64,000 nucleotides of DNA from Staphylococcus phage S6. The notes below the pieces were generated by a model. That model saw nothing but the letters and a program-made list of their open reading frames with translations, was not told where the DNA came from and ran no database searches. The translations under genes were made by a program, and so were the position numbers. Where the stretch lies: sequence record LC680885.1. One strand, given 5' to 3'. Positions within the stretch are counted from its first letter, which is position 1, and each line of letters opens with the position of its first letter. Shown here piece by piece: positions 1 to 59,216 of this stretch.

Positions 1-96
1 TTTTTTATGAGAAGTAAGAGAGAATGTAGTACCATTGAAGCTATGATAATAAGTAGTGGAGGGAAAGTTCTTAGTCATAAAAAGCTCTAATCCTTT

Positions 97-1446
97 ATGA
101 ACATTTCTTTATTCTTAGATAAAGGGATGATAACAATGAATAAAGGAAGAACAATACCAAAAGAAGTTTTTGTTGAAAGGTTAAATAATTTAGATGACAT
201 TGATAAGTATGAATTCCTTATAGAAGATTATAAAGGAGTTACTAAGAAATATACTTTTAAACATACAGAATGTGATCATGAATTTCAAATGACCGGAAAA
301 AACTTTTTAAATGGACAAAGATGTCCAAAATGTGCTCAAAATAAAAGAAACCAATCAAATGTCTTGGAAGATGAAAAAATAATCAATAGGGTTAAAGATT
401 TAAATTTTGATATTATTAAATATAATGGTAAGACTCTTAAAAATGATTTTATGTGTAAAAAATGTAATTATGAATTTAATTGCACCTTTAAATTCCTTTT
501 CTCACAAAAAGAGTGTCCTTACTGTGGACTAAAAAAGGTTGATAAAATCAATAAGAATATCGATAGCTTACAAAGAAAGCTAGATGAAAAAGGATATACT
601 TTAGATATTATACCAGAGTATTTTAATTATACTAAAAAATCTAAATTCAAATGTAGAAATTGTAATGAGTACCTATTAGAATATTATAATAATATTAAAA
701 ATTTAAATAAACCTCAGAATTGTAAATGTTTCGTAAAGAAACGATTAAACATGCTTCCAAGTTATAAGAAGAAATTAGAAAAATATGATAGTGATTACAA
801 AATCTTTGATGAGACTTATATAAACTCTAAAACGCCATGTAAATTTAAACATTTAACTTGTGGTACTGAATTCCAAAAAAGACCGGCTGACTTCTTTTCA
901 AATAGTCAAAAATGTCCTAAATGCGTTATGATTAATAAGAATAAGTATACAGATAAACAAGTTGAGAATATATTGTCTGATACTATGTTTGAAATTACCG
1001 GAGAATATTTTGGAAGTAAAGAAAAAACTGAGTTTAAATGTATGAATTGTGGACATGATTTCACATCAACTCTGATGTCTATATTAAATGGGAAAAAATG
1101 CGGTAAATGTGATTCTAGAGAAAGTTTAGGAGAATCTAGAATCAACAAATTCCTAGTTGACAACAATATAGATTTTGAAAGAGAAAAGTCATTTGATGGT
1201 TTAGAGTATAAATCTAAATTGAGATTTGATTTCTATGTAAAAGACAAAAACCTTCTTATAGAATTTGATGGAGCACAACATTTTGGTCCTATTGAAATAT
1301 TTGGTGGGGAAGATAGATTTAACGAAGATCAAATAAGAGACAATTTAAAAAATAAATACTGCCAAGATAATAACATTGATCTCCTTAGAATCCCTTATAC
1401 AGATATAAGAAATATTGATAAAATATTAGAGCAGAAATTTTTATGA
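97..1446 (+). CDS. Homing-endonuclease-like protein: five tandem zinc ribbons (H/C-x2-C...CPKC) plus a C-terminal Vsr/DUF559-like PD-(D/E)xK nuclease (RFDFYV...LIEFDGAQH)
   Basis: Five repeated CxxC...CxxC modules are visible in the translation. The C-terminal R.DF..IEFDG.QH pattern is typical of the DUF559/Vsr-like fold. The ORF is free-standing and has no SD. Confidence 0.6.
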   Translation: MNISLFLDKGMITMNKGRTIPKEVFVERLNNLDDIDKYEFLIEDYKGVTKKYTFKHTECDHEFQMTGKNFLNGQRCPKCAQNKRNQSNVLEDEKIINRVKDLNFDIIKYNGKTLKNDFMCKKCNYEFNCTFKFLFSQKECPYCGLKKVDKINKNIDSLQRKLDEKGYTLDIIPEYFNYTKKSKFKCRNCNEYLLEYYNNIKNLNKPQNCKCFVKKRLNMLPSYKKKLEKYDSDYKIFDETYINSKTPCKFKHLTCGTEFQKRPADFFSNSQKCPKCVMINKNKYTDKQVENILSDTMFEITGEYFGSKEKTEFKCMNCGHDFTSTLMSILNGKKCGKCDSRESLGESRINKFLVDNNIDFEREKSFDGLEYKSKLRFDFYVKDKNLLIEFDGAQHFGPIEIFGGEDRFNEDQIRDNLKNKYCQDNNIDLLRIPYTDIRNIDKILEQKFL

Positions 1447-1585
1447 TGGAAAGCCGTATGAGGCGAAAGTCTCACGTACGGTTTGGTGCAGGGGAAAAGA
1501 GGTACGTTTAGTATACTCTTACCTATTGCAATAACAATTACTTTCGAAGAAGAATGCATACAGTTTAGATGCTTCAACTAGATCA
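1447..1585 (+). ncRNA. GC-rich structured RNA segment, candidate 3' core (P7-P9-like) of a group I intron
   Basis: Hairpin ccgtatgag-gcgaaagt-ctca(cg)tacgg with a GNRA-type loop, followed by ggtgcaggggaaaagaggtacg. Local GC is well above the window average. Confidence 0.4.
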
Positions 1586-1894
1586 ATGAAGACAGGTCAA
1601 TTAACTTCATCTGACAAAGTGGCAAGTGTATCAAATATGGAAGCTTCTGCATTGAAAGCTATTGGAGCTCAAGATATCTTAAGAGAATTGATGGGTCCAC
1701 GTTCAGACTCTATGAATGCTAAGCAAGAATTAAATAAAAACATCTCTATGTATGGATATTCTCGTTTAGAGGATTTACCAGATGATCTTTCTGATAAGAC
1801 TACATTAAATACTACTTTCTATTATTTACTTGGTGCTGGTATAGAATCTGATTTACTTAAAGACACTAGACCTGATTATGATCAAGAAGAATAA
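1535..1894 (+). CDS. Exon-like ORF (open from 1535, first ATG at 1586) with no ribosome-binding site; putative downstream exon of an intron-split gene
   Basis: No AGGAG within 20 nt of ATG 1586, unlike almost every other gene here. The reading frame stays open upstream to 1535, into the structured segment. Confidence 0.35.
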   Translation, partial: QLLSKKNAYSLDASTRSMKTGQLTSSDKVASVSNMEASALKAIGAQDILRELMGPRSDSMNAKQELNKNISMYGYSRLEDLPDDLSDKTTLNTTFYYLLGAGIESDLLKDTRPDYDQEE

Positions 1895-3816: not shown

Positions 3817-4074
3817 TTGGATGAAATAAGACAAATAGAAAAATATGTAGATGTAGAAAAATTAAATGCAATAAGTAATTATCTCTTTAGAAGCGATTTT
3901 GAAAGTTCTAGATTAGGAGAAGTTCAAAGAAAAGAAGTTTTAGAAGTTTATATGGTAATGGATAAAAATGACATTCAACATTATTTAGCTAAGAAAATTG
4001 AAGAAAATGGAGATAAACTTTGTAATTCTCTAAGTGAATTTGAAGAATTAATAAAAAGGATAAAGGGGATGTAA
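3817..4074 (+). CDS. Hypothetical protein, paralog of 3510..3797
   Basis: TTG start in the track. Similar N-terminal motif (EKLNAISNYLFRSDFES vs EKLDALSISLQGDDFDS). Confidence 0.45.
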   Translation: MDEIRQIEKYVDVEKLNAISNYLFRSDFESSRLGEVQRKEVLEVYMVMDKNDIQHYLAKKIEENGDKLCNSLSEFEELIKRIKGM

Positions 4075-5473: not shown

Positions 5474-6250
5474 ATGGCAGAAAAAATTCTAAATTTAAAA
5501 ATAGTAGTAAGTAATGATTTAAAAGATGTATATGATACAAAATTATCTGGAGGAGGTTATAAAAATAATGAAATAATGGTATCAGAAAATGATATTTTAA
5601 AAATAAAATTAGATATTAAAGATGAACAAGGCAAAGAATTAAAATTAGAAGACATAAATCACTTAATAAGAGTTGGATCTAATGTTAAAAATATTAAAAG
5701 ACTTTTTGATAGAGTTTATAAAATAGATGAATTTTTTGAAAAAGATGGGAAATACTATTTATATAAAATAAAAGAAAATATGGACACTCAATGTTTAATG
5801 TTTAGCGTATACAATTTGGATTCAGAAATTGATGAAGACGTTTTAATGGACATCTTTATTTATAATGATAGTTTTCATAAGTCAGTATTAGGTGTAGTTA
5901 ACAGATATATTGAAAATAAAAAAGATGAAGATATAGTTAAAAAATTTGTATCTGATATCAGAAGTGATTTTGATGAAAAAGAAATTGAATATACAATAGA
6001 AAATATTGACGATTTACTTTTTAGTAGCAATGTTTTTGATTTATTAAATTACGTACATGAAAATAGTCATACTGACGAAGTTATTGATTGTTTTTCAAGC
6101 GAAATTCAAAAATCTTTAAGTGAATCAGTAAATGCTGAAAGTCGTGATGAAGATTATACTTTTGCTGAAGGCATAAATAATATTTTTGGAATTGCAGGGT
6201 TTTCTCTAACAAATGGTAAAGTTTTTAAATTTAATTACTTAAGTGTATAA
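5474..6250 (+). CDS. Hypothetical acidic protein
   Basis: SD taggagatgaattggaaATG. The track's 5423 TTG start lies inside the upstream gene and is probably wrong. Confidence 0.55.
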   Translation: MAEKILNLKIVVSNDLKDVYDTKLSGGGYKNNEIMVSENDILKIKLDIKDEQGKELKLEDINHLIRVGSNVKNIKRLFDRVYKIDEFFEKDGKYYLYKIKENMDTQCLMFSVYNLDSEIDEDVLMDIFIYNDSFHKSVLGVVNRYIENKKDEDIVKKFVSDIRSDFDEKEIEYTIENIDDLLFSSNVFDLLNYVHENSHTDEVIDCFSSEIQKSLSESVNAESRDEDYTFAEGINNIFGIAGFSLTNGKVFKFNYLSV

Positions 6251-15304: not shown

Positions 15305-16606
15305 ATGTCAAAATTAACTAGCAAAATTAATGATTTGATTAAATCAAACCCATCAGTGTACGGTAAAGAAGATAATTACACGCCTATGTATGAATCAGGA
15401 GTTGACTTATTGGACTATAGAAATGGTTTCTTAAATACTGTTACAGATGATGAACGTATTGGATTAATGGGCGGTAAAGTAACTACATTTATTGGTGGAT
15501 CAGGTTCAGGTAAAACAACACTTGCTATTCAAGCAGCAGCAAAAATTGTTGAAAAATATGAGAACTCAAGTGTTATTCATTATGACTTTGAAGATGCAAC
15601 TACTGATGAACGTATTTATCAAGTAACAGGTTGGTCTAAAGAAATGAAACAAGAAAAATACACTAAATTAAATAAAAAGATTAGTTTAGATTCAGTAGAT
15701 CAATTAATTCGTGGTATCCGTGATACTAAATTAGAAAATGAAGAAGAATTCACTATCCATACAGACAAAATTGATCCAGAAACTGGAGAAAAAGTTTCAT
15801 TCATGGCTCCAACAGTAGTTATCATTGACTCTGTTGCTACAATGGCTTCTAAAGAAATTGATGATAAAGATGGTGAAGGTGGACAAATGAATGCCACTAA
15901 ACAAGCTAAAGATAATACAACATTCATTAAACGTATTATTGGTTCATCTACATTAAATTCAGCTAATATTATGCTTATTTTAATTAATCATATTACAACT
16001 AAAATTGATATCAATCCATATGCAGCTACACCTAAAGAATTAAACTATCTTAAACAAGGTGAAGCATTACCAGGTGGTAAAGCAATCAACTATATGGCGA
16101 ATAACATGTTTAAGATTAGTCCATCACAGGCTTTAGATCCAGAAGGAAATTCTAATCAAGCTAAATATGGAATTAAAGGTTTTATCAATACAGTTGAAGT
16201 TATTAAATCACGTTCAAATGCAGCTGGTGCTAAATTTGATTTAATCTTTGAACAAAAGAATGGCTTTAATAATGCTTTATCAAATCTATTGTTCTTACAA
16301 AGTGAAAAAATGCTTAAAGGTAATCCAAGAGCTTATCGTATTGATGGTTATGATGATGTTAGCTTTACACTTAAAACATTTATGGATAAATATGAGAGTA
16401 ATAAAGATTTTAAAGAATACTTTGATAACTATGTTAAAGGTATCTATAAAGAAAAATTCTTAGCTAATATTGAACATGAATCTAGTTTAGATAATGAAGA
16501 ATTAGAATTAGTTGAATTAGTTAATAAAGATGAAGATATTTGGTTAGGTTCAGACGGTAATTATTATGATTCTGATAAAAATGCTATAGAAGTATCTAAA
16601 GATTAA
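15305..16606 (+). CDS. RecA-family recombinase (RecA/UvsX-like)
   Basis: Walker A GGSGSGKTTLAIQAAAK. IIDSVATMASKEIDDKDGE resembles RecA VVDSVAAL...EGEMGD. LILINHIT resembles RecA IFINQIR. Confidence 0.8.
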   Translation: MSKLTSKINDLIKSNPSVYGKEDNYTPMYESGVDLLDYRNGFLNTVTDDERIGLMGGKVTTFIGGSGSGKTTLAIQAAAKIVEKYENSSVIHYDFEDATTDERIYQVTGWSKEMKQEKYTKLNKKISLDSVDQLIRGIRDTKLENEEEFTIHTDKIDPETGEKVSFMAPTVVIIDSVATMASKEIDDKDGEGGQMNATKQAKDNTTFIKRIIGSSTLNSANIMLILINHITTKIDINPYAATPKELNYLKQGEALPGGKAINYMANNMFKISPSQALDPEGNSNQAKYGIKGFINTVEVIKSRSNAAGAKFDLIFEQKNGFNNALSNLLFLQSEKMLKGNPRAYRIDGYDDVSFTLKTFMDKYESNKDFKEYFDNYVKGIYKEKFLANIEHESSLDNEELELVELVNKDEDIWLGSDGNYYDSDKNAIEVSKD

Positions 16607-16758: not shown

Positions 16759-18900
16759 ATGACAAAAGACAAAACACAAAGAATGGTAGAAATTGAAGAT
16801 AAGCGAAGTCATGAGTTTTTATCAGAACCTCTATTAATGCCTAACGTTAATAGAACTAATGGTAACAGATCACAAATGTTTACATCTCACATTGGTCAAT
16901 GTATTCAATTAACTGGAGCTGAACCACCTTTAATTCAAACTGGTTTTGAAAATCAAGTAGGTAAATATTCAACTGGATACAAGAAAGCTAATAGAGATTT
17001 TGAAGTTATTTATAAATTTGAAAAGAATAAGTACGTTAATTACTATTTAATTAAGTACAAAGATAATGATGAATATGATGTAATTATTAGAGAAGAAGCT
17101 AATCACTTAGCTGAGAAGTTCGGAAATAAATATAATAATGATGAAATTGATAAACTAAAAGTTGGAGATACTGTTAGTAAAGAAACTGTATTATTTAAAG
17201 ATCAAAACTATGATGAAGATAATAATTTCCAATATGGTGCTAATGCAACTTCTGTATTCTTACCATTCAAAGGTATGACGAATGAGGACGGAATTGTAGT
17301 ATCAGAATCATTAGCAGAGAAAATGTCAAGTTATTTTGTAAATGTAATCAATATCACTATCAATACAAACGATATTCCTTTAAATTTATATGGAAATGAA
17401 GATGAGTATAAATCATTTCCAGATGTAGGTGAAGAAGTTCAAAATGGAGTATTGTGTGCAACTCGTAGATTGAATTACGATGAGATTATTCATAAATTTA
17501 AAAATGAAATGCTTACTAAAACATTAGAAGATGATAATGCTTATAAAGTTCACGGTAAAGTTATTGATATTGATGTACTTAATAATGAAGATATTGAAAA
17601 ATTAGAAAATCAAAAATATTCAGAGCAATTTGTCAAGTATATTAAAGAATTAAGACACTTTTATAAAACATTTGTAACTGTTACAGATGATATTGTACGT
17701 AAAAAGAAATTTAGTAATGACTTAATTAGAATTCATAATAAATTTAAAGGTTATATTGATGATAACGCTAAATTAGTTTATGACAATAATCAATTTGATA
17801 AAATTATCTTTAGAGTTAAAGTTTTAGAAAAGAAACCTTTAGTTCATGGATCGAAAATCACCACACGCTATGGGGGTAAAGGAGTCGTAGCTGAAATTGT
17901 ACCTGATGATCAAATGCCAATGATCACAGAGTTCGATGGAGAAGACTTCACTAAAGATTCTACTAAAACACCAATTAGTAAACGAGTAGATTTAATCCAT
18001 AATAATATGGGTATCATTAACCGTGGAAATCCATCAGCTTTAATTGAGTTAGAATTAAATCATGTATCAAATGTAATAAGACATCGTATAAGTAAATTAG
18101 ATGATGTTAATCAACAGAAAGAATATCTATTAGGATATATTAAAGATGTAGATAAAATTTCATACGATAATTATGTTAAATTATTTAATCAATTAGATTT
18201 ATCTGAAACTAAAGAAGCTATTAATGAAATTATTAAAGAAGGTATTGTATTACATCAAGCACCATTCTTTGGCAATATTGATTCAGAACAATTAAGATAC
18301 GTATTTAATAAATATAATATTAAGAAAAATAGATTAAATATAAGTAATAGAACATTCATGGTTGGAGATTTATATCACTTAAAACTTAAACATGAACCGT
18401 CTGGTAAATTAAGTGCAAAATCTCTTGACTTTAACAATTACAGTGGAATTCCTACTAGAACTCCAGATAGTAAAAAGTATCTATCAAGAATTAATAATAA
18501 TCCACTTAGAATTGGCGAGATGGAAACATCTAATATGATGATCGGTGGATCTATTAAAGCAATCAATCAATTAACGAATATGTATTCAAATAACCCAGAT
18601 ATGCGTAAACGTTTATTAGTTGAATTGTATACAGGTAATCCATTTAAGATCAATACAGAGAGTATACAAAAACGAACTCAAAATAATAATACTAAAGTAC
18701 TTAATGCTTACTTTAGTCCATTGAATGTTAGTATGACATTTGATGAACCTGAAGAAGATGAATTACTAGATATCATGGATTTAAATGAAGACCAATTAGA
18801 ATTCTTAATGGAAAAATACGAAAATTTAGATGATATCAATGATTTAACACCTCAAGAAATAAATGGTTTAGTTAAAGAAATTATTGAAGAAAGTAAATAA
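16759..18900 (+). CDS. Multisubunit RNA polymerase beta subunit, C-terminal fragment (split beta)
   Basis: NRTNGNRSQMFTSHIGQ resembles NRALMGANMQRQ. TRYGGKGVVAEIVPDDQMP resembles GRHGNKGVxSxIxPxEDMP. LRIGEMETSNMMIGGS resembles GQRFGEMEVWALEAYGA. Confidence 0.8.
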   Translation: MTKDKTQRMVEIEDKRSHEFLSEPLLMPNVNRTNGNRSQMFTSHIGQCIQLTGAEPPLIQTGFENQVGKYSTGYKKANRDFEVIYKFEKNKYVNYYLIKYKDNDEYDVIIREEANHLAEKFGNKYNNDEIDKLKVGDTVSKETVLFKDQNYDEDNNFQYGANATSVFLPFKGMTNEDGIVVSESLAEKMSSYFVNVINITINTNDIPLNLYGNEDEYKSFPDVGEEVQNGVLCATRRLNYDEIIHKFKNEMLTKTLEDDNAYKVHGKVIDIDVLNNEDIEKLENQKYSEQFVKYIKELRHFYKTFVTVTDDIVRKKKFSNDLIRIHNKFKGYIDDNAKLVYDNNQFDKIIFRVKVLEKKPLVHGSKITTRYGGKGVVAEIVPDDQMPMITEFDGEDFTKDSTKTPISKRVDLIHNNMGIINRGNPSALIELELNHVSNVIRHRISKLDDVNQQKEYLLGYIKDVDKISYDNYVKLFNQLDLSETKEAINEIIKEGIVLHQAPFFGNIDSEQLRYVFNKYNIKKNRLNISNRTFMVGDLYHLKLKHEPSGKLSAKSLDFNNYSGIPTRTPDSKKYLSRINNNPLRIGEMETSNMMIGGSIKAINQLTNMYSNNPDMRKRLLVELYTGNPFKINTESIQKRTQNNNTKVLNAYFSPLNVSMTFDEPEEDELLDIMDLNEDQLEFLMEKYENLDDINDLTPQEINGLVKEIIEESK

Positions 18901-24531: not shown

Positions 24532-26523
24532 ATGTTAAAATTTAATGAAATTAATGAAAGTAATTTAGATGACGTACAAAAATATTTAGAGGAGCAATCT
24601 TATGTATATTATAATACATCAGATCAACCAGAATTAACTGATGAAGAATTTGACAAACTATTAAGAGAATACGAAAAGTTCCGTCCATTTAATGGCGGAG
24701 CTTTACCTTCTAAAGGTAAAAAATTAGTAGATGTTTCACATGAATATCCTGAATTAGTAGGAACAGTTTCTAAGGTTAATTCAGTTGAAGAATTAGCTGA
24801 ATGGATTGAAGAAAAAGGACTAATTAATAGAGAATTATTAATTACACAGAAATATGATGGTAATTCAGTATTAGTTATTTTAACTACTAAAGGAGATTAT
24901 TTAGTAACTAAATCAGCATTAACTAGAGGTAAAGATGGTAAAGGTGCTGACTTAACTGACTTCTTCAGTCATATTAAAATTAAAAAATCAGATGTCGATA
25001 TTAATGCAGTTGATTTATCTGAAGACGATATTGATATCGCTATTAAGTGTGAAGCAGTAATGAGTTATAGTAACTTTAATAAGATTGATGAAGAGTATGC
25101 TAACCCTAGATCAATCGTTGCAGGATTATTAAACTCAGATGATGGATATAAGAAACGTAAGTTAATTAATTTATTACCATTGAGAATTAATATTAGTAAT
25201 AAAGAATTAACTCGACAAGAAGAATTAAATTTAATTTCAGCAATTACTAGTCATAGTACTGTATTTGATCAGCTTGATCCACAGTATAATTTTGTTATGG
25301 AAGATGAACACGATTATAAAGACTTTAATGAATTATATCATCAGATAGCTGATGAAAGAGAGTATTATGAATACATGATTGATGGATTAGTTATTGAAGC
25401 TCTTGATGAAGATGATAGAAATCGTTTAGGTAGATTAAATGATCGTAATAAGTTTGATGTAGCATTGAAATTCCCATATATGACTAAAAAGACTAATGTT
25501 ATTGATATTGAATTTGATGTATCTGAAAATGGTACAGGTAGATATACACCTGTAGTTAGATTTGAACCTATTTATTTTAATGGTGCTAAATGTGAAAGAG
25601 TTTCTATTTCTAACTATAAACGTTTTAAAGAACTTCAATTAGTTAAAGGACAAGAAGTTATTATTGAATATCGTAATGATGTTTTGAGTTATTTAACTCC
25701 ATCTCCTACTAACGAAATTACTGGAGAACCTATACCGTTCATTAAAGAGTGTGTATACTGTGGTGAAGAACTTGAAGTTAATGAAAATGAAACATTTGTA
25801 TCATGTATTAATAACGATTGTGAATGTAGAGTATTAGGTATTATTAACAACTATGTAGATAAAATGAGTATTAAAGGAATTGAATATTCTACTATTAATA
25901 AGCTTTATAAAGGTAACAAACTACCTAACGGAATCCAAAGTTTATATGAAATTGATAAAAACGATATTATGCAAGTAGATACTTTTAAAGAAAAATCAGC
26001 TCAGAATATTATTAATACAATTCATAAAAATAAAGAATATTATGACTATGATGTATTAGGTTCATTAGGATTAAATGGAGTTGGAAGAACTACATTTAAA
26101 TTAGTTACTAAAGTCTATGATCCACAAGAAATAGATTATACAGATTTAAGTATTAAAGATTTAACTTCTATTAAAGGAATCGCTGATATTACTGCTGAGA
26201 TTATTATTAATGGTTATAAACAGAATAAAGATTTAATTGAATTCTTATTTAATGAATTGGATGTTAAATCACTTAAAAAAGAAATGGAAGCTAATAAAGA
26301 TGATTCAGTTGAGCCAATGAATATTGTATTTAGTGGATTTAGAGATGCTGAATTTAAAGAACAGTTAGAACTTAAAGGTCATAAAGTAACTTCATCAGTT
26401 TCAGGTAAGACTGATTTATTAGTTACTCCAGATCCAAATTCAGGTTCATCTAAGATTAATAAAGCTAAAGAAAAAGGTATCAAGATCATTGATATTGAAA
26501 GTTCTAAAGGTGAGTTGTTATAA
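24532..26523 (+). CDS. ligA: NAD-dependent DNA ligase (LigA type)
   Basis: Adenylation motif KYDG (ITQKYDGNSV). Cys4 zinc finger CVYCGEEL...CINNDCEC. C-terminal BRCT (IVFSGFRD...KTDLLV). Confidence 0.85.
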   Translation: MLKFNEINESNLDDVQKYLEEQSYVYYNTSDQPELTDEEFDKLLREYEKFRPFNGGALPSKGKKLVDVSHEYPELVGTVSKVNSVEELAEWIEEKGLINRELLITQKYDGNSVLVILTTKGDYLVTKSALTRGKDGKGADLTDFFSHIKIKKSDVDINAVDLSEDDIDIAIKCEAVMSYSNFNKIDEEYANPRSIVAGLLNSDDGYKKRKLINLLPLRINISNKELTRQEELNLISAITSHSTVFDQLDPQYNFVMEDEHDYKDFNELYHQIADEREYYEYMIDGLVIEALDEDDRNRLGRLNDRNKFDVALKFPYMTKKTNVIDIEFDVSENGTGRYTPVVRFEPIYFNGAKCERVSISNYKRFKELQLVKGQEVIIEYRNDVLSYLTPSPTNEITGEPIPFIKECVYCGEELEVNENETFVSCINNDCECRVLGIINNYVDKMSIKGIEYSTINKLYKGNKLPNGIQSLYEIDKNDIMQVDTFKEKSAQNIINTIHKNKEYYDYDVLGSLGLNGVGRTTFKLVTKVYDPQEIDYTDLSIKDLTSIKGIADITAEIIINGYKQNKDLIEFLFNELDVKSLKKEMEANKDDSVEPMNIVFSGFRDAEFKEQLELKGHKVTSSVSGKTDLLVTPDPNSGSSKINKAKEKGIKIIDIESSKGELL

Positions 26524-32434: not shown

Positions 32435-34057
32435 TTGGGTAATTATTTAAGAAAAATTACGAAGAATATACAAGATGAGGTCAGTACAAAAGAGTCATTT
32501 AATGAGGATGTAATATACTTTAGGGAGAATGAAAACCTAGAAGATATTATATCTGATATTTACAAATCAGTAGAATTTATTAAAGGCGTAAAATTCATTG
32601 ATTGTAAAGTTGTTCCTCCAAGTGAAGTTTATGAGTACAATCAAATGACAGACAAACAATTTAAAGCAAGAGATTTTAGAAAAATCAACGTAGAAGAATC
32701 AAAACTATTAGAAGTTCAAATTACTGTAGAATTTGAATCAGCTGAAGGGGAAAAAGAATTATACACACATAAATTAGATTTCCCTGAACTTATAGAAGGT
32801 CAGTATTATTATATTAATGATAATAAGTTCTTCCCTATCTTACAATTAGCTGATACTGAATTCTATAAACCTAAAGCAAGTACAGTAGTAATGAAAAACT
32901 TATTACAACCATTATCAGTAAATGGTTCTAAAAAAGATGAACTTATTGATGATGATAAGAAAATGCCTAAGAAGTTAAGAGGTAGAACATTATACTTAGA
33001 AGTATTTAATAAAAATAAACCTGTTCCAGCATTTTTATTCTTTATTGCTAAAATGGGTCTAGATGAAACATTTGAATTCTTAGATATTAAAGAATATTGT
33101 GAATTAGTAGATACCAACGATGAAAAAGATGATGAACACTACTATTTTAGAATTAATAATAAAATAACTATTCAAGTTGATAAAGAATGGTTAGATCAAG
33201 ACGATAGATATAGAACTTCTATGGTCTTATGTATTAAAGATTTATTTAAAGGTATGAGAGCAGGATTAGATAAAGTATATGATAAAGAATTCTGGCTTAA
33301 GAATTTAGGATCTGTATTTAGTGGTTCTACTAACGTTGACACTAAAATTGAAAAATCTAATTCTATGATTTTATCATTTGATAGAATTTTAGATAGTCGT
33401 ACTAAAAATATTTCTAGATTAGATCCAGAAGATAAAGAATCAACTTATCATGTAGTTAAATACATGTTTAAAAACTTTGATAATCTTAATTTATTAGATA
33501 ATACAGATTTAGCTAATAAACGTTTAAGAGTATTAGAATACTTAACTTATCCACTGAATAGAAAGAACTCTGATACATCTTATCGTATGATTAATTTCAC
33601 AGATAAGAAACGTACAATTAAAAATCTTAAAGGATTATTCTCAGGTGTACCTCGTGATTTCTTATTAAAAACTATAGGAACATCTGAAGGAATTAGATAT
33701 TCCAATGCAGTTAATACAATTGACTTATTTACTAGAATTCTTAAAATGACTAAAGCAGGTCCACAAACTGCTGTTGATACTAGTAAACCATCTATTAGAA
33801 CTATTAATATCAATAATACTTATTTCGGTAGAATTGATTTAATAGCAACATCTTCAAACAATCCAGGTATTACACGTACATTAACACCATTCTGTGAGGT
33901 TAAAGATCCTGGTGAGAATGGTTCATTCTATTTTGAAAATAAACCTAACATCAGAGAAAATATTGACACAGATAATTTAGATAAACTAGAGAAAGAATCT
34001 GAAGACAATGAAGTTGTATTAGATATTAAAGAAATTGTAGAAGAGGATGACGAATAA
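32435..34057 (+). CDS. Multisubunit RNA polymerase beta subunit, N-terminal fragment (split beta)
   Basis: [25 protein letters not shown] resembles beta [46 protein letters not shown] resembles [31 protein letters not shown] resembles [20 protein letters not shown]. TTG start with SD aaggagag. Confidence 0.7.
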   Translation: [540 protein letters not shown]

Positions 34058-35367
34058 TGGCTAGATTTTTACTTAAGAATAAAGACTTATCAAAATTACC
34101 AGTAGTAACAAATCATGAATCAATTGATAAGAAAGGTGATTTCACTGAAGACGGTATCTTCAGTGAGAAAATCTTTGGACCTGATTCAGATGTAGATAAT
34201 ATTACAAATGAAGCTATAGTTTATTTAGGTAATAACTATATTATTACACCTTTAGGATATGACAGAATTAAAAAATTAATAGGTAGAAAAAGATTTGCTG
34301 AAATTATTAGTTCTGAAAAACCTATTGATGAAAATGGTAATGTAATTGAACCAGAAGATGACCATAATTCATATATTGGTTTAGTTGAATTTAGAAAGAA
34401 CTTCTTAAAGATTCTTAAAGAAGAAGTTAAACGTGATAAACGTAAAACTAAAGATTACAATAGAGTTGTTCAATGGTATTTAAATGGAACATTATTCCAA
34501 AATTATGTAACTGTATTTAGTCCTAAATTAAGACCGGCTACAGTTAATAAAGCAACTAAGACATTTAGACATTCAGAAATTAATAAAGAATTTAATTTAT
34601 TAATTGCTCATAGTAATAGTCTTAAAGAATTAGATGAACATTATACAGATGATTCAGTTGAACTACAAAAGTTAAACCTACTTAATAAAATTCAAGATGA
34701 CAACATGAATATCTATGATCGTATTATCAATGAAAACATTAAAGGTAAAATGGGTACTATTCGTAAATTAATTATGGGTAGTCGTGTAGGATATTCAGCT
34801 CGTTCAGTAATTGTTCCAGCTCCTGATTTAAAATTAAATGAAATTAGAATGAATTATACAATCTTCTTAGAAATATACAAACCACTATTAGCTAATTTAA
34901 TGTATGTAACGGAAAATATTCCATTACCTAAAGCAGAAGAAATATTAGGTAGAGCTTTAGATAACTTTAATCCTAAAGTATATAAATATATGAAAGAATT
35001 AGTTAACAAAACTGAAGGTGGAATGAGAGTAATTTTGAACCGAAATCCATCTATCTCAGAATCATCAGTTCAAATATTAAAAATTAAAGATATCATTAGT
35101 GATATTGACTCAGCTGTAGTAGGTATTAGTAATAATATACTTGCAGGTATGGGTGCTGACTATGATGGAGACACATTGAATATTATAGCTCTCTTCTCAG
35201 AAGAGCAATATGATATGTTAAAAGTACAAGATCCAGTCAATCAATTAATATCATATAATGATGGTCTATTTAATAGAACTTATTCACTTAATAAAGACTC
35301 ACAGATTGCAGTTTATTTATTAAATAATCCTAAATCAAAAGATGTAAGTATAAAAGCTAGTAAATAG
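34057..35367 (+). CDS. Multisubunit RNA polymerase beta' subunit, N-terminal fragment (up to ~70 aa past the catalytic DFDGD)
   Basis: DGIFSEKIFGP resembles beta' DGLFCARIFGP. GSRVGYSARSVI resembles GKRVDYSGRSVI. GADYDGDTLNI resembles NADFDGDQM. ATG overlaps the upstream stop (translational coupling). Confidence 0.8.
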   Translation: MARFLLKNKDLSKLPVVTNHESIDKKGDFTEDGIFSEKIFGPDSDVDNITNEAIVYLGNNYIITPLGYDRIKKLIGRKRFAEIISSEKPIDENGNVIEPEDDHNSYIGLVEFRKNFLKILKEEVKRDKRKTKDYNRVVQWYLNGTLFQNYVTVFSPKLRPATVNKATKTFRHSEINKEFNLLIAHSNSLKELDEHYTDDSVELQKLNLLNKIQDDNMNIYDRIINENIKGKMGTIRKLIMGSRVGYSARSVIVPAPDLKLNEIRMNYTIFLEIYKPLLANLMYVTENIPLPKAEEILGRALDNFNPKVYKYMKELVNKTEGGMRVILNRNPSISESSVQILKIKDIISDIDSAVVGISNNILAGMGADYDGDTLNIIALFSEEQYDMLKVQDPVNQLISYNDGLFNRTYSLNKDSQIAVYLLNNPKSKDVSIKASK

Positions 35368-36086: not shown

Positions 36087-37139
36087 ATGTCCAAATATGA
36101 TTTAACTTTATATCATCATTTAAAACAAGAAGTAAAACCATGTAGATTAACAACTTCACAGGATGAGACAATGATACGTTGTCCTTTCTGTGGAGATTCT
36201 AAAAAGTCTAAAAGTTCAACACATTTATATATACAAAATAGAACTCCATTTAAATATTTCTGTCAAAGATGTAATGCTTCTGGAGTTATGAGTAATAAAG
36301 TTTTAGCTATGTTAAATAGTGGTAATGTAGAAATAAATAGTTATATTAACAATCAATATAATGAATATATTTCTAATATGAATAAAAAATATGGCAAATC
36401 TTTTATCAATAGAAATACAAAAGAATTAAAATACTACCCAAATAAATATACCGATTTAGAAATAAGCAAGATTAATTATATTAATGAAAGATTGGGTATT
36501 AACATAGATGAGAAGGATATTGAATTATATAAGATTATTTTAAATATAGAAGATTTTTATAAGAATAATGAATTTGATATAGATAATCAATATCAAATAA
36601 ATAATCTTAATAATAATTATTTTAGTTATATGTTGAACGATAAGAACACTATTAATTGTAGATTAATGAATAGTGACACATTTGGGGCTAATGGGAAGAA
36701 ACATTTTAAACAAAAAATATTTAAGAATTTAGCTGATGAAAGTACTAGATTTTATTCAATTAAGAATGAATTAAGATTGGATAGAAGAGTATATAATATT
36801 CATATAGCTGAAGGATTCTTTGATATATTGGGGATATTTAATCATGTGTATAATAAAGAAATAAATGACAATGATATATTTATAGCTAATAACGGAAAAG
36901 GTTATAAATTTGTATTAAATTATCTAAATAGTTTAGGTATACTTAATATGAATATAAATATTTATTCCGATAGAGATGTTAAAATTACTGATTATCGCAG
37001 TAAGAGAATGCTCGGTAATTCGCTACCAGTAATTTTAAATGATGCTAATATATATTATAATGAATTTGAAGATGAGAAAGATTTTGGGGTAACAAAAGAT
37101 AAAATAAAATTATCAGAACCAATTAAGTTTAATCAATAA
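36087..37139 (+). CDS. DnaG-like DNA primase (zinc ribbon + TOPRIM)
   Basis: Zinc ribbon CPFCGDS...CQRC. TOPRIM-like EGFFD (HIAEGFFDILG) and DxD (YSDRDVKITD). Confidence 0.5.
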   Translation: MSKYDLTLYHHLKQEVKPCRLTTSQDETMIRCPFCGDSKKSKSSTHLYIQNRTPFKYFCQRCNASGVMSNKVLAMLNSGNVEINSYINNQYNEYISNMNKKYGKSFINRNTKELKYYPNKYTDLEISKINYINERLGINIDEKDIELYKIILNIEDFYKNNEFDIDNQYQINNLNNNYFSYMLNDKNTINCRLMNSDTFGANGKKHFKQKIFKNLADESTRFYSIKNELRLDRRVYNIHIAEGFFDILGIFNHVYNKEINDNDIFIANNGKGYKFVLNYLNSLGILNMNINIYSDRDVKITDYRSKRMLGNSLPVILNDANIYYNEFEDEKDFGVTKDKIKLSEPIKFNQ

Positions 37140-49702: not shown

Positions 49703-50188
49703 ATGAATTATTTAAAGAATGAAAAAGGGGAGGTCTTTCCAGTCAATGAAGAAGGAATGGAGAATATTATATTCTTTCTTCTAGACTACTCACAGAAAAA
49801 TGATTATAACACAATGAATTTGATTAAAGAGATAAATGATCACGTGATGAAAGGCGAAAATATAAGTAATAAATTTATTAATGAAAAGACAAAAGAAACG
49901 ATATTAACATTAGGTAAAGTAAAAGGTAATTTAACTAATGAATTAGCTAGAAGTGGTTATATAGTTAATTTCTCTAGAAATAAAATATCACTATCGATAT
50001 ATGTAAAAAATAATAGTTTTAAATTAGTAAGAATTTCAGATCATAATATTAATAAAAAAATAAATAAAAAAGGTGTAATCAGTAATAGATTTGACGGACA
50101 ATTAGTATGTAAAAATAATCTAGTTAAATCTTCTGATTTGAAAAAGCATGGAATTGATATTAATGAAGGAATATATTATTTAGAATAG
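49703..50188 (+). CDS. Hypothetical protein
   Basis: SD taggagatgattaggaATG. Confidence 0.55.
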   Translation: MNYLKNEKGEVFPVNEEGMENIIFFLLDYSQKNDYNTMNLIKEINDHVMKGENISNKFINEKTKETILTLGKVKGNLTNELARSGYIVNFSRNKISLSIYVKNNSFKLVRISDHNINKKINKKGVISNRFDGQLVCKNNLVKSSDLKKHGIDINEGIYYLE

Positions 50189-50201
50189 GATGAAACTATA
50201 T

Positions 50202-50483
50202 ATGAAAAAGATAATAATGTTTTTAGGTATTTTGTTACTAACAACGGTATTGGTCGGTTGTGGAGAAAGTGTTGATTCAAAAGATAAAAAAGATTCAATC
50301 AAAACAGTAACTATTTATAGTAAAGACGGTAAAGTATTACATCAATATGAAGGAAAAGTTAGTGCTGAGAGAGTAACGGATAACAAATTTACTAAAATTG
50401 ATATAGACGGTAAGAAATTAAGAGTTGTAAATGCAGATGTAGTTATTGAAGAGAAAGGTATTGAGAAATTTGAAACAAAATAA
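50202..50483 (+). CDS. Lipoprotein
   Basis: Lipobox VLVGC|GES. The track start 50190 lies in the SD region (aggATGaaactatatATG). Confidence 0.6.
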   Translation: MKKIIMFLGILLLTTVLVGCGESVDSKDKKDSIKTVTIYSKDGKVLHQYEGKVSAERVTDNKFTKIDIDGKKLRVVNADVVIEEKGIEKFETK

Positions 50484-50494
50484 AGATTAAGTAT

Positions 50495-50504
50495 ATATTA
50501 TAAT
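50495..50504 (+). promoter_or_regulatory. TATATTATAA motif
   Basis: tatattataattatgaagaaagatatt..atatctttc hairpin. Confidence 0.35.
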
Positions 50505-50560
50505 TATGAAGAAAGATATTATCATATATCTTTCTAATAAAATTAATGGAGGAATTTGTT

Positions 50561-50857
50561 ATGGCAAAATTAAATGAAGAAGTATTAAGAGACTTTCAAG
50601 TAAAAACTGAAATTGATGGAGAATTTGAAGTAATGGAATCTGATGAGCTTGGTGTTGATGAAGCTTATGAAATTGAATTAATTAAAGAATTGGGATTAGA
50701 TGTCGATTCAAGTGTATTCTCTTATGCAATATCAGAAAAAGATGATGAAGAAAATACGTATACTTTAGAATATAGTCATGAAGGCGTTCTATTAACTATT
50801 CATGATATCGATTTTGAAAATGGTATTCATGATACTATTTATAAAAATGTAATTTAA
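50561..50857 (+). CDS. Small acidic protein
   Basis: aATGGAGGaatttgttATG. The track start 50546 is the ATG in the SD. Confidence 0.5.
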   Translation: MAKLNEEVLRDFQVKTEIDGEFEVMESDELGVDEAYEIELIKELGLDVDSSVFSYAISEKDDEENTYTLEYSHEGVLLTIHDIDFENGIHDTIYKNVI

Positions 50858-55103: not shown

Positions 55104-55667
55104 ATGGAAAAATATGATAAATTAACTGAAGAATTAGAAGCTTTATATGAGCAATCTCAAGAAGAAGCTCTAGAAGAACAGTTCGAAAGCATTATCGAAT
55201 CAACTGATGAAGATAAAGCAGAAGAAGTTGAAGATAAAGATTCTAAAGAAGATTCAGACGAAGAAGAAACATCTGTTGAAGAACAATTTAACAGTATCTT
55301 AGAATCAGAAGATGAAGAATCTGATGAGGAAGAAGATGACGAAGATTCAGAAGAAGAACCGGTTGAAGAATCTGATGAGGAAGATTCAGAAGACGATTCA
55401 GAAGATGATGAAGATTCTTTAGAAGAAGAATTAAATCGTTTATTTGAAGAAAATGAAGACCCAGAAATGGATGTCGAAAAGCAAACTACAAAAGCTAATG
55501 ACATGAACTCAAAAAAATCATCTGACTCTACTGAACATCCTGAAGAAGATGTGAAAAAAATCACTTCAGAAGATGAAGACGAAGAAGAAGATGCTGAAGA
55601 TGACGAAGAAGAATCTACTAATGAAGATGAATCATTAGAAGAATCATTAGATCGTATCTTTGGTTAA
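55104..55667 (+). CDS. Extremely acidic Asp/Glu/Ser-rich protein with internal repeats
   Basis: SD aaaaggagaa. Repeats EEQF(E/N)SI(I/L)ES(T/E)DE... and runs of D/E. Confidence 0.6.
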   Translation: MEKYDKLTEELEALYEQSQEEALEEQFESIIESTDEDKAEEVEDKDSKEDSDEEETSVEEQFNSILESEDEESDEEEDDEDSEEEPVEESDEEDSEDDSEDDEDSLEEELNRLFEENEDPEMDVEKQTTKANDMNSKKSSDSTEHPEEDVKKITSEDEDEEEDAEDDEEESTNEDESLEESLDRIFG

Positions 55668-56219: not shown

Positions 56220-59216
56220 TTAGTTTCTTCCATAAATATAAGAGTTTAGGAACCAAGCATTTCCTTTTTGACCTGGTTTAACACGAGCTCGTATAGCTAC
56301 TGAAGCTATAGATTGTTGTGGTATTCCTAAATCAACAATAATCTCTTTAAATTTAGTTTTAGTAACACTAGTAGAAGTGTCTTTAGGTATTGATACAGTT
56401 TTATCAAAAATTACACCATTCTGTTCGTTAAAAGAGTCTACTTTAATATCTATACCACATTGTGGAGTAGCATACCATATACCAATGTGTAACCATCTAG
56501 TTTCATGTTGACCGTATAATGTCATAGCACGTCTAAAGTAGCTACCTGTAGTCTTATCACTAAACATAAATGCATTACCGACATTTTTAAATCTAGGAGT
56601 ACCATTAGACATTAAATCTTGCACACCAGGTTCTGAACGTACATAAGCTGTAGTGAATCGTGGCATACCATTGTATACTAAATAACCACCATCAGGGCGT
56701 TTGATAGTGATACCGCCTTTAACTTCTCCCATAGCGTCTAACATAGTTTGAACAACTATATTTTTAGACATTAAATTAGTAATAGCAGCTTCTTTAATAG
56801 TAGCTCTACCATTAGAAATTATTACATCACCATCATTAATATCAACCATCTTAGATTTTAATTTAATACTATTAGGATCAATATCAAAAGAAGACAATTT
56901 ATCATTAGAAGAAGATGACATAGTAATACCATCAGCTAATAAAGATAATGCAGAACCCATTTTTTCTATTTTAGTTTTATCAGCATTGTAAGTTTCTTTA
57001 GTAACACTTAAAGCGATATTATTTTCTGTTTGACTAATTCTACTTTCCATATTAGTAATTCTAGCATTACTATCTTTAATAGATGGTTGCCAAGCAGTAG
57101 ATTTATTACCTTCTTCAACTTTTAATCCTTCAATATCAACAGACATTGGGAAAGTTCCATTTTTATTAATAATCATATTAATTAATGTGTCAACTGTAAA
57201 TGAATCATTAGGAATAAATACTACTTCTATTAATGTTAAAGCAGAAGTATCATCAAACGTAATATTACGTGAATCTTGACCTTTAGCAACACCATTAACA
57301 AAAGTATTAGTTATAGTTGAATTAGGTATACTAATATCAACATTAGTTAATGTACCAGTTTTCTTTTCTAAGTTAAAGCTTAATATGTGTTCACGTCTAT
57401 TTCTAACTTTATCTAATTTAAATTTAATACCTTGACCGTTAGCAGTTAAAGCTGCATTAAGTTCTCCGTATTCTAAATAATTAGTTTTAGTTAAAGTTAC
57501 AGAACCAATTGGTGTAATATTAGCAATGCTAATTAAGTTCATACCGCCAACTGTAATTTTACCGGCTTCTGTAACAGCATAACCATTAGAAATACTGTCA
57601 ATAGCTTTTTGAATAGCATCTTTAATATTCGATTGAGCTTCATTATATCTCAAGTAGTTAGTATTAAATTGAGCTATTTCTTCTTGAGTAGCTACACCGT
57701 CACTAATAGTATTAGTGATATCTTGTATTAGTATATTATATTTCTCATTAAATAAATCATATTTATTTTTTAAATCTGTTTTTACTGAATTAGCCATCAT
57801 TTTATTAGGATAAAGTGTATTAAAGATTTTATCTATTTCAGCTTTATCTTTATCAATAACATTTTTCTGTTTATCAATAGCAATTCTTTCAGCATTAGAT
57901 ATAATACCATCTTTGAAAGCTTCAGTAACTGTATCACCTAAACCTACAGCATTCTTTTCGATATTAGTTATTTTACCATTAATGGTTTTATTATAGTTTT
58001 CTAACATATTATCATAATCTTCAGGTGCAGATGTCCAGTCAGAAGACACACTACCTCGTTCAACTTTAACTCTAGCAATATCAAATGTACCACTTAATCC
58101 ATTAAGATCAGTGTCTACTCCAAGAAGTAATTTAGTATTATTTCTTCCAGTTAGTGTTTGTTTATATACGAATGAATATCTATGCCATTCTTCATCAATA
58201 TCTAAATACTTTTCAGCGATTGGTGTAGAATAATTACCAGAAGGATCAATGAAGTAACAATAATCAAGTCTATTAAATGTATCTGATCTAAAATCAAATG
58301 AAATAGTATAAGTCTCATTGTATTCTAGTTTAAAACCATTATAACTTTGAGCACCTACTTGACCTTCAATACCTTCAGTATTAATTGTAAAATAACTTTT
58401 ACCGTCACTATCTTGTCCAAAAGTTAAAGCATTTGGGTTTGATGAATTTAAAGCATCCGGTTTTAACAACCAATTACCTGAAACAGCTAAAGAATTTTCT
58501 AATAAGTTTTTACCACCAATAACAATACCGTCAATTTCAGATTTAGAAACTGTTTGTTCTATTAAGTCTGCAAATTGAGATATCTGACTTTCAAATTCAG
58601 TTACTTTATTATTAACCGTATCTATATCAGCTCTAGTAACTGTATCTTGTAGAACTCTAGCTGTTTGTTCTCTAAATGATTCTAATTTAGTAATACTATC
58701 ATTAATTTCATTAAGAGTATAATCAGTAGCTATACTCTTAATGGACTCTGCAGTTTGTTCTACTTTAGTACTTAAATATTGTATAGATGATTCATATTTA
58801 TTAACTTTAGACATTGCTATTGATAGGGACTCTTCATTAGATGAAACTCTTCCATTTAAAGAATCTAGATTACCTTTAATATCAGAATCCCATCCACCTT
58901 CAGCAACGCTATCAATATAGTCAATACTTAGTTTTTGGTATTTTCTTAATTCAGTTTTTAATGTATCAAGTGTAACATAGTTAGATAAATCTAAATCAAT
59001 ATCGTGACTACCATCTAAATTTCTTAATTTTTCTATTAAATTATCATTTTCTTTATCTAAAGAATCAATACTTGTATTTAAGACATTAATTCTATTTTTA
59101 TTATCTTCTGACAGATTTTTAATGCTATCTTGTTCTTGTAATAAAGAATTGAATTTCGATTTAATAGAATTTATTTCTTCATTTATTTGAAGAAGATTTT
59201 TTTCTTTATCTTCCAT
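56220..59216 (-). CDS. Large structural protein, tail-fibre-like (N-terminal coiled coil, 998 aa)
   Basis: SD ggtgaaatttaataATG on the minus strand. The long coiled-coil N-terminus and Gly/Thr/Asn-rich C-terminal part suggest a fibre. No definitive motif. Confidence 0.35.
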   Translation of the reverse strand: MEDKEKNLLQINEEINSIKSKFNSLLQEQDSIKNLSEDNKNRINVLNTSIDSLDKENDNLIEKLRNLDGSHDIDLDLSNYVTLDTLKTELRKYQKLSIDYIDSVAEGGWDSDIKGNLDSLNGRVSSNEESLSIAMSKVNKYESSIQYLSTKVEQTAESIKSIATDYTLNEINDSITKLESFREQTARVLQDTVTRADIDTVNNKVTEFESQISQFADLIEQTVSKSEIDGIVIGGKNLLENSLAVSGNWLLKPDALNSSNPNALTFGQDSDGKSYFTINTEGIEGQVGAQSYNGFKLEYNETYTISFDFRSDTFNRLDYCYFIDPSGNYSTPIAEKYLDIDEEWHRYSFVYKQTLTGRNNTKLLLGVDTDLNGLSGTFDIARVKVERGSVSSDWTSAPEDYDNMLENYNKTINGKITNIEKNAVGLGDTVTEAFKDGIISNAERIAIDKQKNVIDKDKAEIDKIFNTLYPNKMMANSVKTDLKNKYDLFNEKYNILIQDITNTISDGVATQEEIAQFNTNYLRYNEAQSNIKDAIQKAIDSISNGYAVTEAGKITVGGMNLISIANITPIGSVTLTKTNYLEYGELNAALTANGQGIKFKLDKVRNRREHILSFNLEKKTGTLTNVDISIPNSTITNTFVNGVAKGQDSRNITFDDTSALTLIEVVFIPNDSFTVDTLINMIINKNGTFPMSVDIEGLKVEEGNKSTAWQPSIKDSNARITNMESRISQTENNIALSVTKETYNADKTKIEKMGSALSLLADGITMSSSSNDKLSSFDIDPNSIKLKSKMVDINDGDVIISNGRATIKEAAITNLMSKNIVVQTMLDAMGEVKGGITIKRPDGGYLVYNGMPRFTTAYVRSEPGVQDLMSNGTPRFKNVGNAFMFSDKTTGSYFRRAMTLYGQHETRWLHIGIWYATPQCGIDIKVDSFNEQNGVIFDKTVSIPKDTSTSVTKTKFKEIIVDLGIPQQSIASVAIRARVKPGQKGNAWFLNSYIYGRN

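Follow-up and report, generated by a model that had tools for sequence, protein, structure and literature searches.

Phages were believed to lack group II introns until 2025, when Merk, Jones & Eddy (Nucleic Acids Res 2025, PMC12350094) reported them in phage genomes. In four of these phage introns, an endonuclease combining CapR/DUF4379 repeats with an EDxHD/Vsr-like domain replaces the reverse transcriptase (RT). The introns of the Bacillus phages AR9 and PBS1 and of the Staphylococcus jumbo phage MarsHill interrupt the N-terminal part of the gene for the RNA polymerase (RNAP) beta' subunit and encode open reading frames (ORFs) of ~300-325 aa (PMC12350094 Fig. 5). Here we analysed the intron of Staphylococcus jumbo phage S6 that lies at the start of a 64,000-nt stretch of DNA (hereafter the window, whose position 1 is LC680885 position 192001). 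Like those of AR9, PBS1 and MarsHill, it is, as judged by sequence and predicted folds, a IIB intron in an RNAP subunit gene of an AR9-like jumbo phage, with an endonuclease of the CapR/DUF4379-repeat and EDxHD/Vsr-like type in place of an RT. Its host gene, however, is beta, its domain V triad is AGC instead of CGC, and its ORF encodes 436 aa.

The S6 intron has been on record since that 2025 report, whose Table S1 (PMC12350094) has a 'viral RNA pol beta' intron at LC680885 191615-193532 with an ORF at 192136-193443, typed as IIB with D1D4-5 (E 1.7e-5), an AGC triad, GTGTG/AT ends and a homing-endonuclease gene (HEG), and gives pseudoknot evidence as '-' for both S6 and the related phage PALS_2. 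Converted to window coordinates, the ORF falls at 136-1443 and the intron end at 1532, in exact agreement with our analysis. Sequence, class, triad, ends, ORF coordinates and HEG call are all identical, and by these features the intron is the same element and not a new one. Window positions 1-1532 correspond to intron nt 387-1918, i.e. the 3' 80% of a ~1.9-kb intron, whose first 386 nt, like exon 1, precede the window. An earlier note on this DNA had taken the element for a group I intron. Our contribution is the correction of that first reading together with supporting detail. Beyond PMC12350094, we add the pairing of exon-binding site 1 with intron-binding site 1 (EBS1-IBS1), which shows a compensatory change relative to Listeria phage LPJP1, as well as covariation in domain VI, an insertion codon common with LPJP1, and clustered substitutions in the exon flank.

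Mobile group II introns of the Ll.LtrB type share with the S6 intron the AGC triad of domain V, the predicted branch-point A of domain VI and an ORF in domain IV, as well as the GUGYG 5' end listed for S6 in Table S1 of PMC12350094 and the EBS1-IBS1 pairing seen in the PALS_2 and LPJP1 copies. Unlike them, the S6 intron has no RT and no maturase X domain, and no Pfam RT match was found in its ORF. I-Bth0305I (PDB 3R3P), which founded the EDxHD homing-endonuclease family, comes from a group I intron within a recombinase gene of a Bacillus phage. The S6 endonuclease has the same Vsr-like fold in prediction, with the conserved acidic and His residues, but the two proteins are 21% identical with no sequence-level match, and the S6 enzyme differs in its zinc-finger repeat DNA-binding part and its group II carrier. 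Organellar and bacterial group II introns with LAGLIDADG or GIY-YIG genes (PMC12350094 refs 5, 54) are a further parallel, in which an endonuclease likewise replaces the RT and DNA-level homing is implied. The S6 intron differs from these in its EDxHD/Vsr-like family and in its host, a protein-coding gene of a lytic jumbo phage.

A covariance-model scan, which the earlier note had proposed, was run over the whole window with Rfam and found a group II intron and no group I intron. The sole match above the gathering score was to the group II domain V/VI model RF00029 (gathering score 40), which aligned over its full length to positions 1449-1532 (66.4 bits, E 7.4e-11). At a permissive threshold (E ≤ 0.5), the only additions were a second domain V model of group II introns and a single stray match of snoRNA type, and neither RF00028 nor any other group I model matched anywhere in the window. 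The GC fraction over 100 nt peaked at 0.42 at 1451-1550, against a background of ~0.25. The segment 1447-1534 folded at -31.7 kcal/mol, compared to a mean of -17.9 for dinucleotide-shuffled sequences (z = -5.1), none of which was as stable (0/200). The GC-rich, self-complementary stretch that the earlier note had described at 1447..1585 is real in composition and folding, but the structure stops at 1532, and 1533-1585 is already exon. The GNRA-capped stem that had been picked out within it (ccgtatgag/ctca..tacgg) is genuine and corresponds to group II domain V with its GAAA loop.

The 3' splice site was fixed at 1532^1533 (a caret marks the junction) by relatives, by the end of the RF00029 model and by Table S1. 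The relatives found by megablast were Staphylococcus jumbo phages, of which UFV_DC4, MarsHill, LY01 and SA1 aligned only from window position 1533 on. UFV_DC4 has a continuous 677-aa ORF across the insertion site, with no intron, and the MarsHill gene is uninterrupted at 1532^1533. PALS_2 matched window positions 1-83 and resumed at 1437, and carries the same intron without the ORF (L001 5516-6096, 581 nt; L001, L002 and L003 denote the stretches of PALS_2, MarsHill and UFV_DC4). These boundaries were derived independently here and equal those of Table S1 (50111-50691, ORF-less). When joined, exons 1 and 2 of PALS_2 read ...GYLHVKRL^QQLLSKKNAYSL..., colinear with the intronless genes of UFV_DC4 and MarsHill. 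Listeria phage LPJP1 has an ORF-less intron with 68.6% identity at the identical codon (...GYLPVRRL^QQTLSKK...). The insertion interrupts the Gln codon C^AA in ...GYLHVKRL^QQLLSKK..., which explains an apparent in-frame TAA at 1532-1534. The continuous relatives and the group II match bear out the central claim of the earlier note, namely that a host gene is split by an intron with a homing-endonuclease gene, as opposed to three genes standing on their own. Its description of the downstream frame also held: the frame is open from 1535 and runs to a stop at 1892-1894, and its first ATG at 1586 lacks a Shine-Dalgarno (SD) sequence (upstream sequence CAGTTTAGATGCTTCAACTAGATCA). The accompanying remark that nearly every gene here has an AGGAG was overstated, as among the 72 ATG-ORFs on the plus strand with 80 aa or more, 35 had a 5-mer SD and 48 a 4-mer core, in a crude count that includes spurious ORFs.

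The intron could be followed from end to end in PALS_2, whose copy begins with GUGUG (L001 5516), matches RF02004 (domains I-IV, 45.5 bits) and RF00029 (65.9 bits), and ends with AU. In this copy, EBS1 GUAGGC (intron nt 264-269, in a hairpin loop) pairs over 6 bp with IBS1 GUCUAC; no other pairing of 6 bp or more includes the final nucleotide of exon 1. In LPJP1, the aligned position reads GUAGUC and the exon GACUAC, a compensatory change from G.U to U-A. The 5' ends of the PALS_2 and LPJP1 copies read GUGUG or GUGCG, and exon 1 ends with C in both. Further downstream, PALS_2 L001 5902-5913 pairs as a hairpin (UCUCAUAA/UUAUGAGA), and LPJP1 has a differing sequence at the equivalent of window positions 1-12 that is also self-complementary (CCCUA/UAGGG). 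The equivalent of 13..72 is near-invariant between PALS_2 and LPJP1, and the domain IV stem of S6 closes a loop of 15-16 nt in PALS_2. RNAalifold of S6, PALS_2 and LPJP1 revealed seven pairs with two-sided changes, all in domain VI, with domain V invariant. The invariance of domain V and the compensatory changes in domain VI and EBS1-IBS1 between Staphylococcus and Listeria phages indicate selection for a working ribozyme. Taken together, conservation and predicted folding identify the S6 intron as a structurally intact group IIB ribozyme.

Differences between an allele with and an allele without the intron are clustered in the exon next to the junction. PALS_2 (intron-containing) and UFV_DC4 (intronless) differ at 2 of 380 nt upstream, after which the final 20 nt of exon 1 contain 4 differences. 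These four lie at -17, -14, -5 and -2, and all are synonymous (L001 5496-5515 compared with L003 ~3981-4000). Those at -5 and -2 turn EBS1 mismatches into pairs. This cluster is compatible with a flank co-converted in the course of homing, with selection acting on IBS1 pairing, and with a combination of the two.

Exon 2 also contains traces of variation close to a second insertion site. The MarsHill gene is interrupted by a different intron (L002 6066-7393, 1,328 nt), inserted 65 nt further downstream and following ...MKTG; its empty site in the window is 1597^1598. There, exon 1 ends with U and the intron with G, so that it is termed group I-like from its boundaries only; it had no Rfam match at E ≤ 1. 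Its endonuclease is homologous to that of S6 (31% identity, E 3e-30). In PALS_2, seven substitutions relative to both S6 and UFV_DC4 are found within 19 nt at L001 ~6167-6185 (window 1603-1621, exon-2 offsets 71-89), 6-24 nt downstream of the MarsHill-type intron site. All seven are synonymous and include a serine codon switch from TCA to AGT. This cluster may have been left by earlier intron traffic or by escape from an endonuclease target.

The split gene encodes, by homology, the beta subunit of the phage virion RNA polymerase. The exon downstream of the intron matched phrog_3233 'RNA polymerase beta subunit' (1.5e-14) and gave a weak Pfam match to Rpb2_7 (Rpb2 domain 7; 18 bits, below threshold), and Pfam likewise returned only a sub-threshold Rpb2_7 match for the full intronless host protein. 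With phmmer, the intronless protein aligned to residues ~1198-1319 of bacterial beta (E 1e-3). Within this alignment, the motif MEASALKAIGAQDILRELMGPRSD, which the earlier note had picked out, falls around E. coli residues 1270-1295 and VGYLHVKRLQQLLSKK stands opposite bacterial beta VGYMYMLKLNHLVDDKM. The conserved insertion segment GYLHVKRL^QQLLSKK of this essential gene matches GYMYMLKL^NHLVDDK of bacterial beta, close to the active centre. In MarsHill, the orthologous gene carries the annotation 'viral RNA polymerase beta subunit'. A hunch in the earlier note that an RNAP gene is split here was right about a multisubunit RNAP but named the wrong subunit, beta'. The family search of the translated exon that the note had suggested found beta; no beta' (Rpb1) family and no PDB beta' chain was returned by the Pfam, PHROG and PDB searches, in which every match was to beta.

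The endonuclease ORF was described in the earlier note as 97..1446 without an SD. The ORF exists and ATG 97 indeed lacks an SD, but this is true of the first ATG only, because the in-frame ATG at 136 follows AAAGGGA (121-127) at a distance of 8-9 nt. ATG 136 is the likely start, and the product from this codon is 100% identical to an annotated S6 protein of 436 aa. The stop codon TGA (1444-1446) lies within the 3' strand of the domain IV stem. The ORF belongs to the endonuclease families phrog_559, phrog_9084 and phrog_7140 (2e-79 to 2e-20), and Pfam found DUF4379 in four stretches (1.6e-17), with weak matches to CapR and DUF2726. The protein has at least four DUF4379/CapR-like treble-clef zinc-finger modules followed by a C-terminal nuclease. 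AlphaFold2, given 62 homologues, modelled residues 326-436 with a mean pLDDT (predicted local distance difference test score) of 95.9. In a Foldseek search against the PDB, the top match was 3r3p, the I-Bth0305I catalytic domain (E 4.4e-4, template modelling scores 0.57/0.64), followed by the Vsr structures 1cw0 and 1vsr. Among 63 homologues, D365, E376, D378, H382, D402 and K405 (436-aa numbering; domain columns D40, E51, D53, H57, D77 and K80) are invariant or conserved to at least 90%, and they fit a Vsr-type active site. The nuclease domain is thus predicted by modelling to have an EDxHD/Vsr-type fold. Relatives of this endonuclease are encoded in ~500 phage genomes, the closest being 45% identical, and no paralogue was found in the window. 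The endonuclease block is flanked by a 7-nt direct repeat, TTTATGA, at 94-100 and 1440-1446, and a deletion between the repeats would yield a domain IV loop like that of the ORF-less PALS_2 intron. The repeat is short and AT-rich and may be due to chance.

Features of the S6 intron and its 3' exon, in window coordinates
Feature	Position	Strand	Basis or remark
Domain II hairpin loop and 3' strand	1..12	+	colinear with PALS_2 L001 5902-5913; labelled by position only
J2/3 (domain II/III joining) linker AGUAAGA (13-19) and domain III, stem 20-25/67-72	13..72	+	minimum free energy folds; domain label inferred by position
Domain IV basal stem, 5' strand GUCAUAAAAA	74..83	+	pairs with 1438-1447
Domain IV loop with endonuclease gene	84..1437	+	~1.35 kb longer than in the ORF-less PALS_2 intron
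Homing-endonuclease gene, 436 aa and stop (likely start)	136..1446	+	Pfam, PHROG, identity to annotated S6 protein
Predicted EDxHD/Vsr-like nuclease domain	1111..1443	+	AlphaFold2, Foldseek, alignment of homologues
Domain IV basal stem, 3' strand UUUUUAUGAU	1438..1447	+	complementary to 74-83; same pairing in PALS_2 fold
Domain V, 34 nt, AGC triad 1452-1454, 2-nt bulge, GAAA tetraloop 1465-1468	1451..1484	+	RF00029 alignment, folds
Domain VI, putative bulged branch-point A 1525, 7 nt before the 3' splice site	1487..1530	+	RF00029, RNAalifold
Last intron nucleotides, AU	1531..1532	+	RF00029 model end, megablast, Table S1 of PMC12350094
3' exon, virion RNAP beta subunit (by homology), last 120 codons and stop	1533..1894	+	begins in codon phase 1, C^AA = Gln

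These data very probably reflect a group IIB intron with an endonuclease gene in the S6 RNAP beta gene, with homing at the DNA level as its proposed mode of spread. The transcript would splice by the branching pathway via A1525, joining the upstream exon 1 to position 1533, and the expected joined RNA would read ...CUAC^AACAAUUA... at that position (in longer form, ...CGUCUAC^AACAAUUACUU). Splicing would proceed without a maturase of its own. In a mixed infection, the enzyme would cut the intronless beta allele near the insertion site, and repair from the intron-bearing genome would bring in the intron along with a few exon nucleotides beside it, among them the IBS1 that the ribozyme needs. 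Since domain IV holds a DNA endonuclease and not an RT or maturase, we infer DNA-level homing, which is typical of group I introns; with neither an RT nor a maturase X domain in the intron ORF, retrohoming by its own protein would not be possible.

Several points weigh against this interpretation. The 5' splice site, domain I and EBS1-IBS1 were examined on the PALS_2 and LPJP1 copies only, as the upstream part of the S6 intron is outside the window, and for EBS2-IBS2 several AT-rich candidates were found, none of them consistent between PALS_2 and LPJP1. By sequence alone, the host protein resembles the RNAP beta entries of PDB and Pfam weakly (E ~1e-3). The endonuclease had no meaningful match in a sequence search against the PDB, where a fold search was needed. 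The intron encodes no maturase, and its ORF had no match to RT families in the Pfam and PHROG searches. Most bacterial group II introns need a maturase in vivo. Splicing, cleavage and homing are predictions, and splicing of phage introns was not assayed by Merk et al. (PMC12350094).

Two of the alternatives would change what the element is. Endonucleases of the S6 family reside mostly in group I introns (PMC12350094), and the group I-like intron of MarsHill carries a homologous endonuclease in the same gene, 65 nt away, as would suit the group I class given in the earlier note. There is virtually no chance that this class is correct: it is ruled out by the RF00029 match together with the lack of any group I match at the gathering score or at E ≤ 0.5, and PALS_2 matches RF02004. 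In addition, the intron terminates in U where a group I intron would have G, exon 1 of PALS_2 and LPJP1 terminates in C instead of U, and the introns of these two phages begin with GUGUG or GUGCG. The other alternative is that nothing is spliced, so that there are three independent genes, beta is made as separate polypeptides and the intron-like RNA is a dead relic. The annotators of PALS_2 and S6 call the pieces separate 'hypothetical proteins', and in AR9-like phages the natural RNAP subunits are each spread over more than one gene (Korn et al.). This is nevertheless very improbable, and three independent genes are rejected because continuous alleles exist in UFV_DC4 and MarsHill. A start at ATG 1586, besides having no ribosome-binding site, would lose 18 conserved residues (QQLLSKKNAYSLDASTRS) present in both of these phages. 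The split falls within a codon, and the invariant domain V and the domain VI and EBS1-IBS1 pairings maintained by compensatory changes across phages of two host genera indicate selection for a working ribozyme.

A further alternative accepts splicing and differs on how the intron spreads or persists: by retrohoming with an RT acting in trans, such as the orphan RT of MarsHill-like phages, by vertical descent only with an inactive endonuclease, or with an endonuclease serving mainly as a weapon against intronless phages in the same cell. Such an orphan RT is encoded by MarsHill-like phages (Korn et al.), a trans-acting RT has been proposed for the ORF-less LPJP1 introns (Merk et al., PMC12350094), and the ORF-less form persists in PALS_2 and LPJP1, where EBS1 matches its own exon as retrohoming would need. 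We consider such routes unlikely, while granting them some weight. The orphan RT of MarsHill-like phages is retron-like and not of the group II type, with no maturase domain reported (Korn et al.); the endonuclease ORF is intact, with catalytic-type residues conserved across the 63 homologues; and the synonymous cluster beside the junction fits repair-mediated co-conversion, though it is also compatible with selection for IBS pairing.

Within the favoured reading of a IIB intron homing by its endonuclease, a more speculative extension can be considered, which we regard as doubtful at present. The endonuclease gene itself may be the mobile unit, moving between ribozyme scaffolds; endonuclease homing of a group II intron may be viable only with co-conversion of IBS1; and the RNAP-beta hotspot may be a place where jumbo phages infecting the same cell compete through their introns. 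The homologous gene in the group I-like MarsHill intron fits a mobile endonuclease, as does the S6 copy, which occupies a domain IV loop that has no insert in PALS_2, with the 7-nt direct repeat flanking the insert. Repair would have to co-convert at least the last 5 nt of exon 1 (IBS1), and this requirement would explain the synonymous cluster beside the junction. An intron endonuclease has reportedly been implicated in competition between the phages PhiPA3 and PhiKZ, which is comparable to the competition envisaged at RNAP beta.

Elsewhere in the window, other RNAP subunit genes are apparently uninterrupted, at 16759-18900 (phrog_3295, 2.5e-104), 32435-34057 (phrog_2943 'polymerase', 3e-41) and 34057-35367 (phrog_2987, 8e-50). 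The window also encodes a UvsX-like recombinase (15305-16606), an NAD-dependent ligase (24532-26523), a primase (36087-37139) and, on the minus strand, a large tail protein (56220-59216). No further introns or tRNAs were found in the window. A sub-threshold Rfam match to the archaeal C/D-box RNA sR52 at 55569-55623 (30.5 bits compared with a gathering score of 50, E 0.022) is most likely due to chance. Just upstream of RNAP beta in MarsHill, the DNA gyrase A gene (L002 448-4002) contains an intein with a LAGLIDADG endonuclease (annotation; Korn et al.). The equivalent gyrase A gene of S6 would be upstream of the window, and the neighbourhood is dense in selfish elements.

Group II introns with a DNA endonuclease instead of an RT are rare anywhere, and the S6 locus is one of four published phage examples. 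Its intron sits in the segment of the virion RNA polymerase gene that corresponds to the catalytic centre. The related phages provide a natural allele series, with the endonuclease-bearing form in S6, the ORF-less form in PALS_2 and LPJP1, the empty site in UFV_DC4 and the neighbouring group I-like intron in MarsHill. This series is suited to questions on maturase-free splicing of group II introns, on homing at the DNA level, and on the role of endonucleases in competition between jumbo phages.

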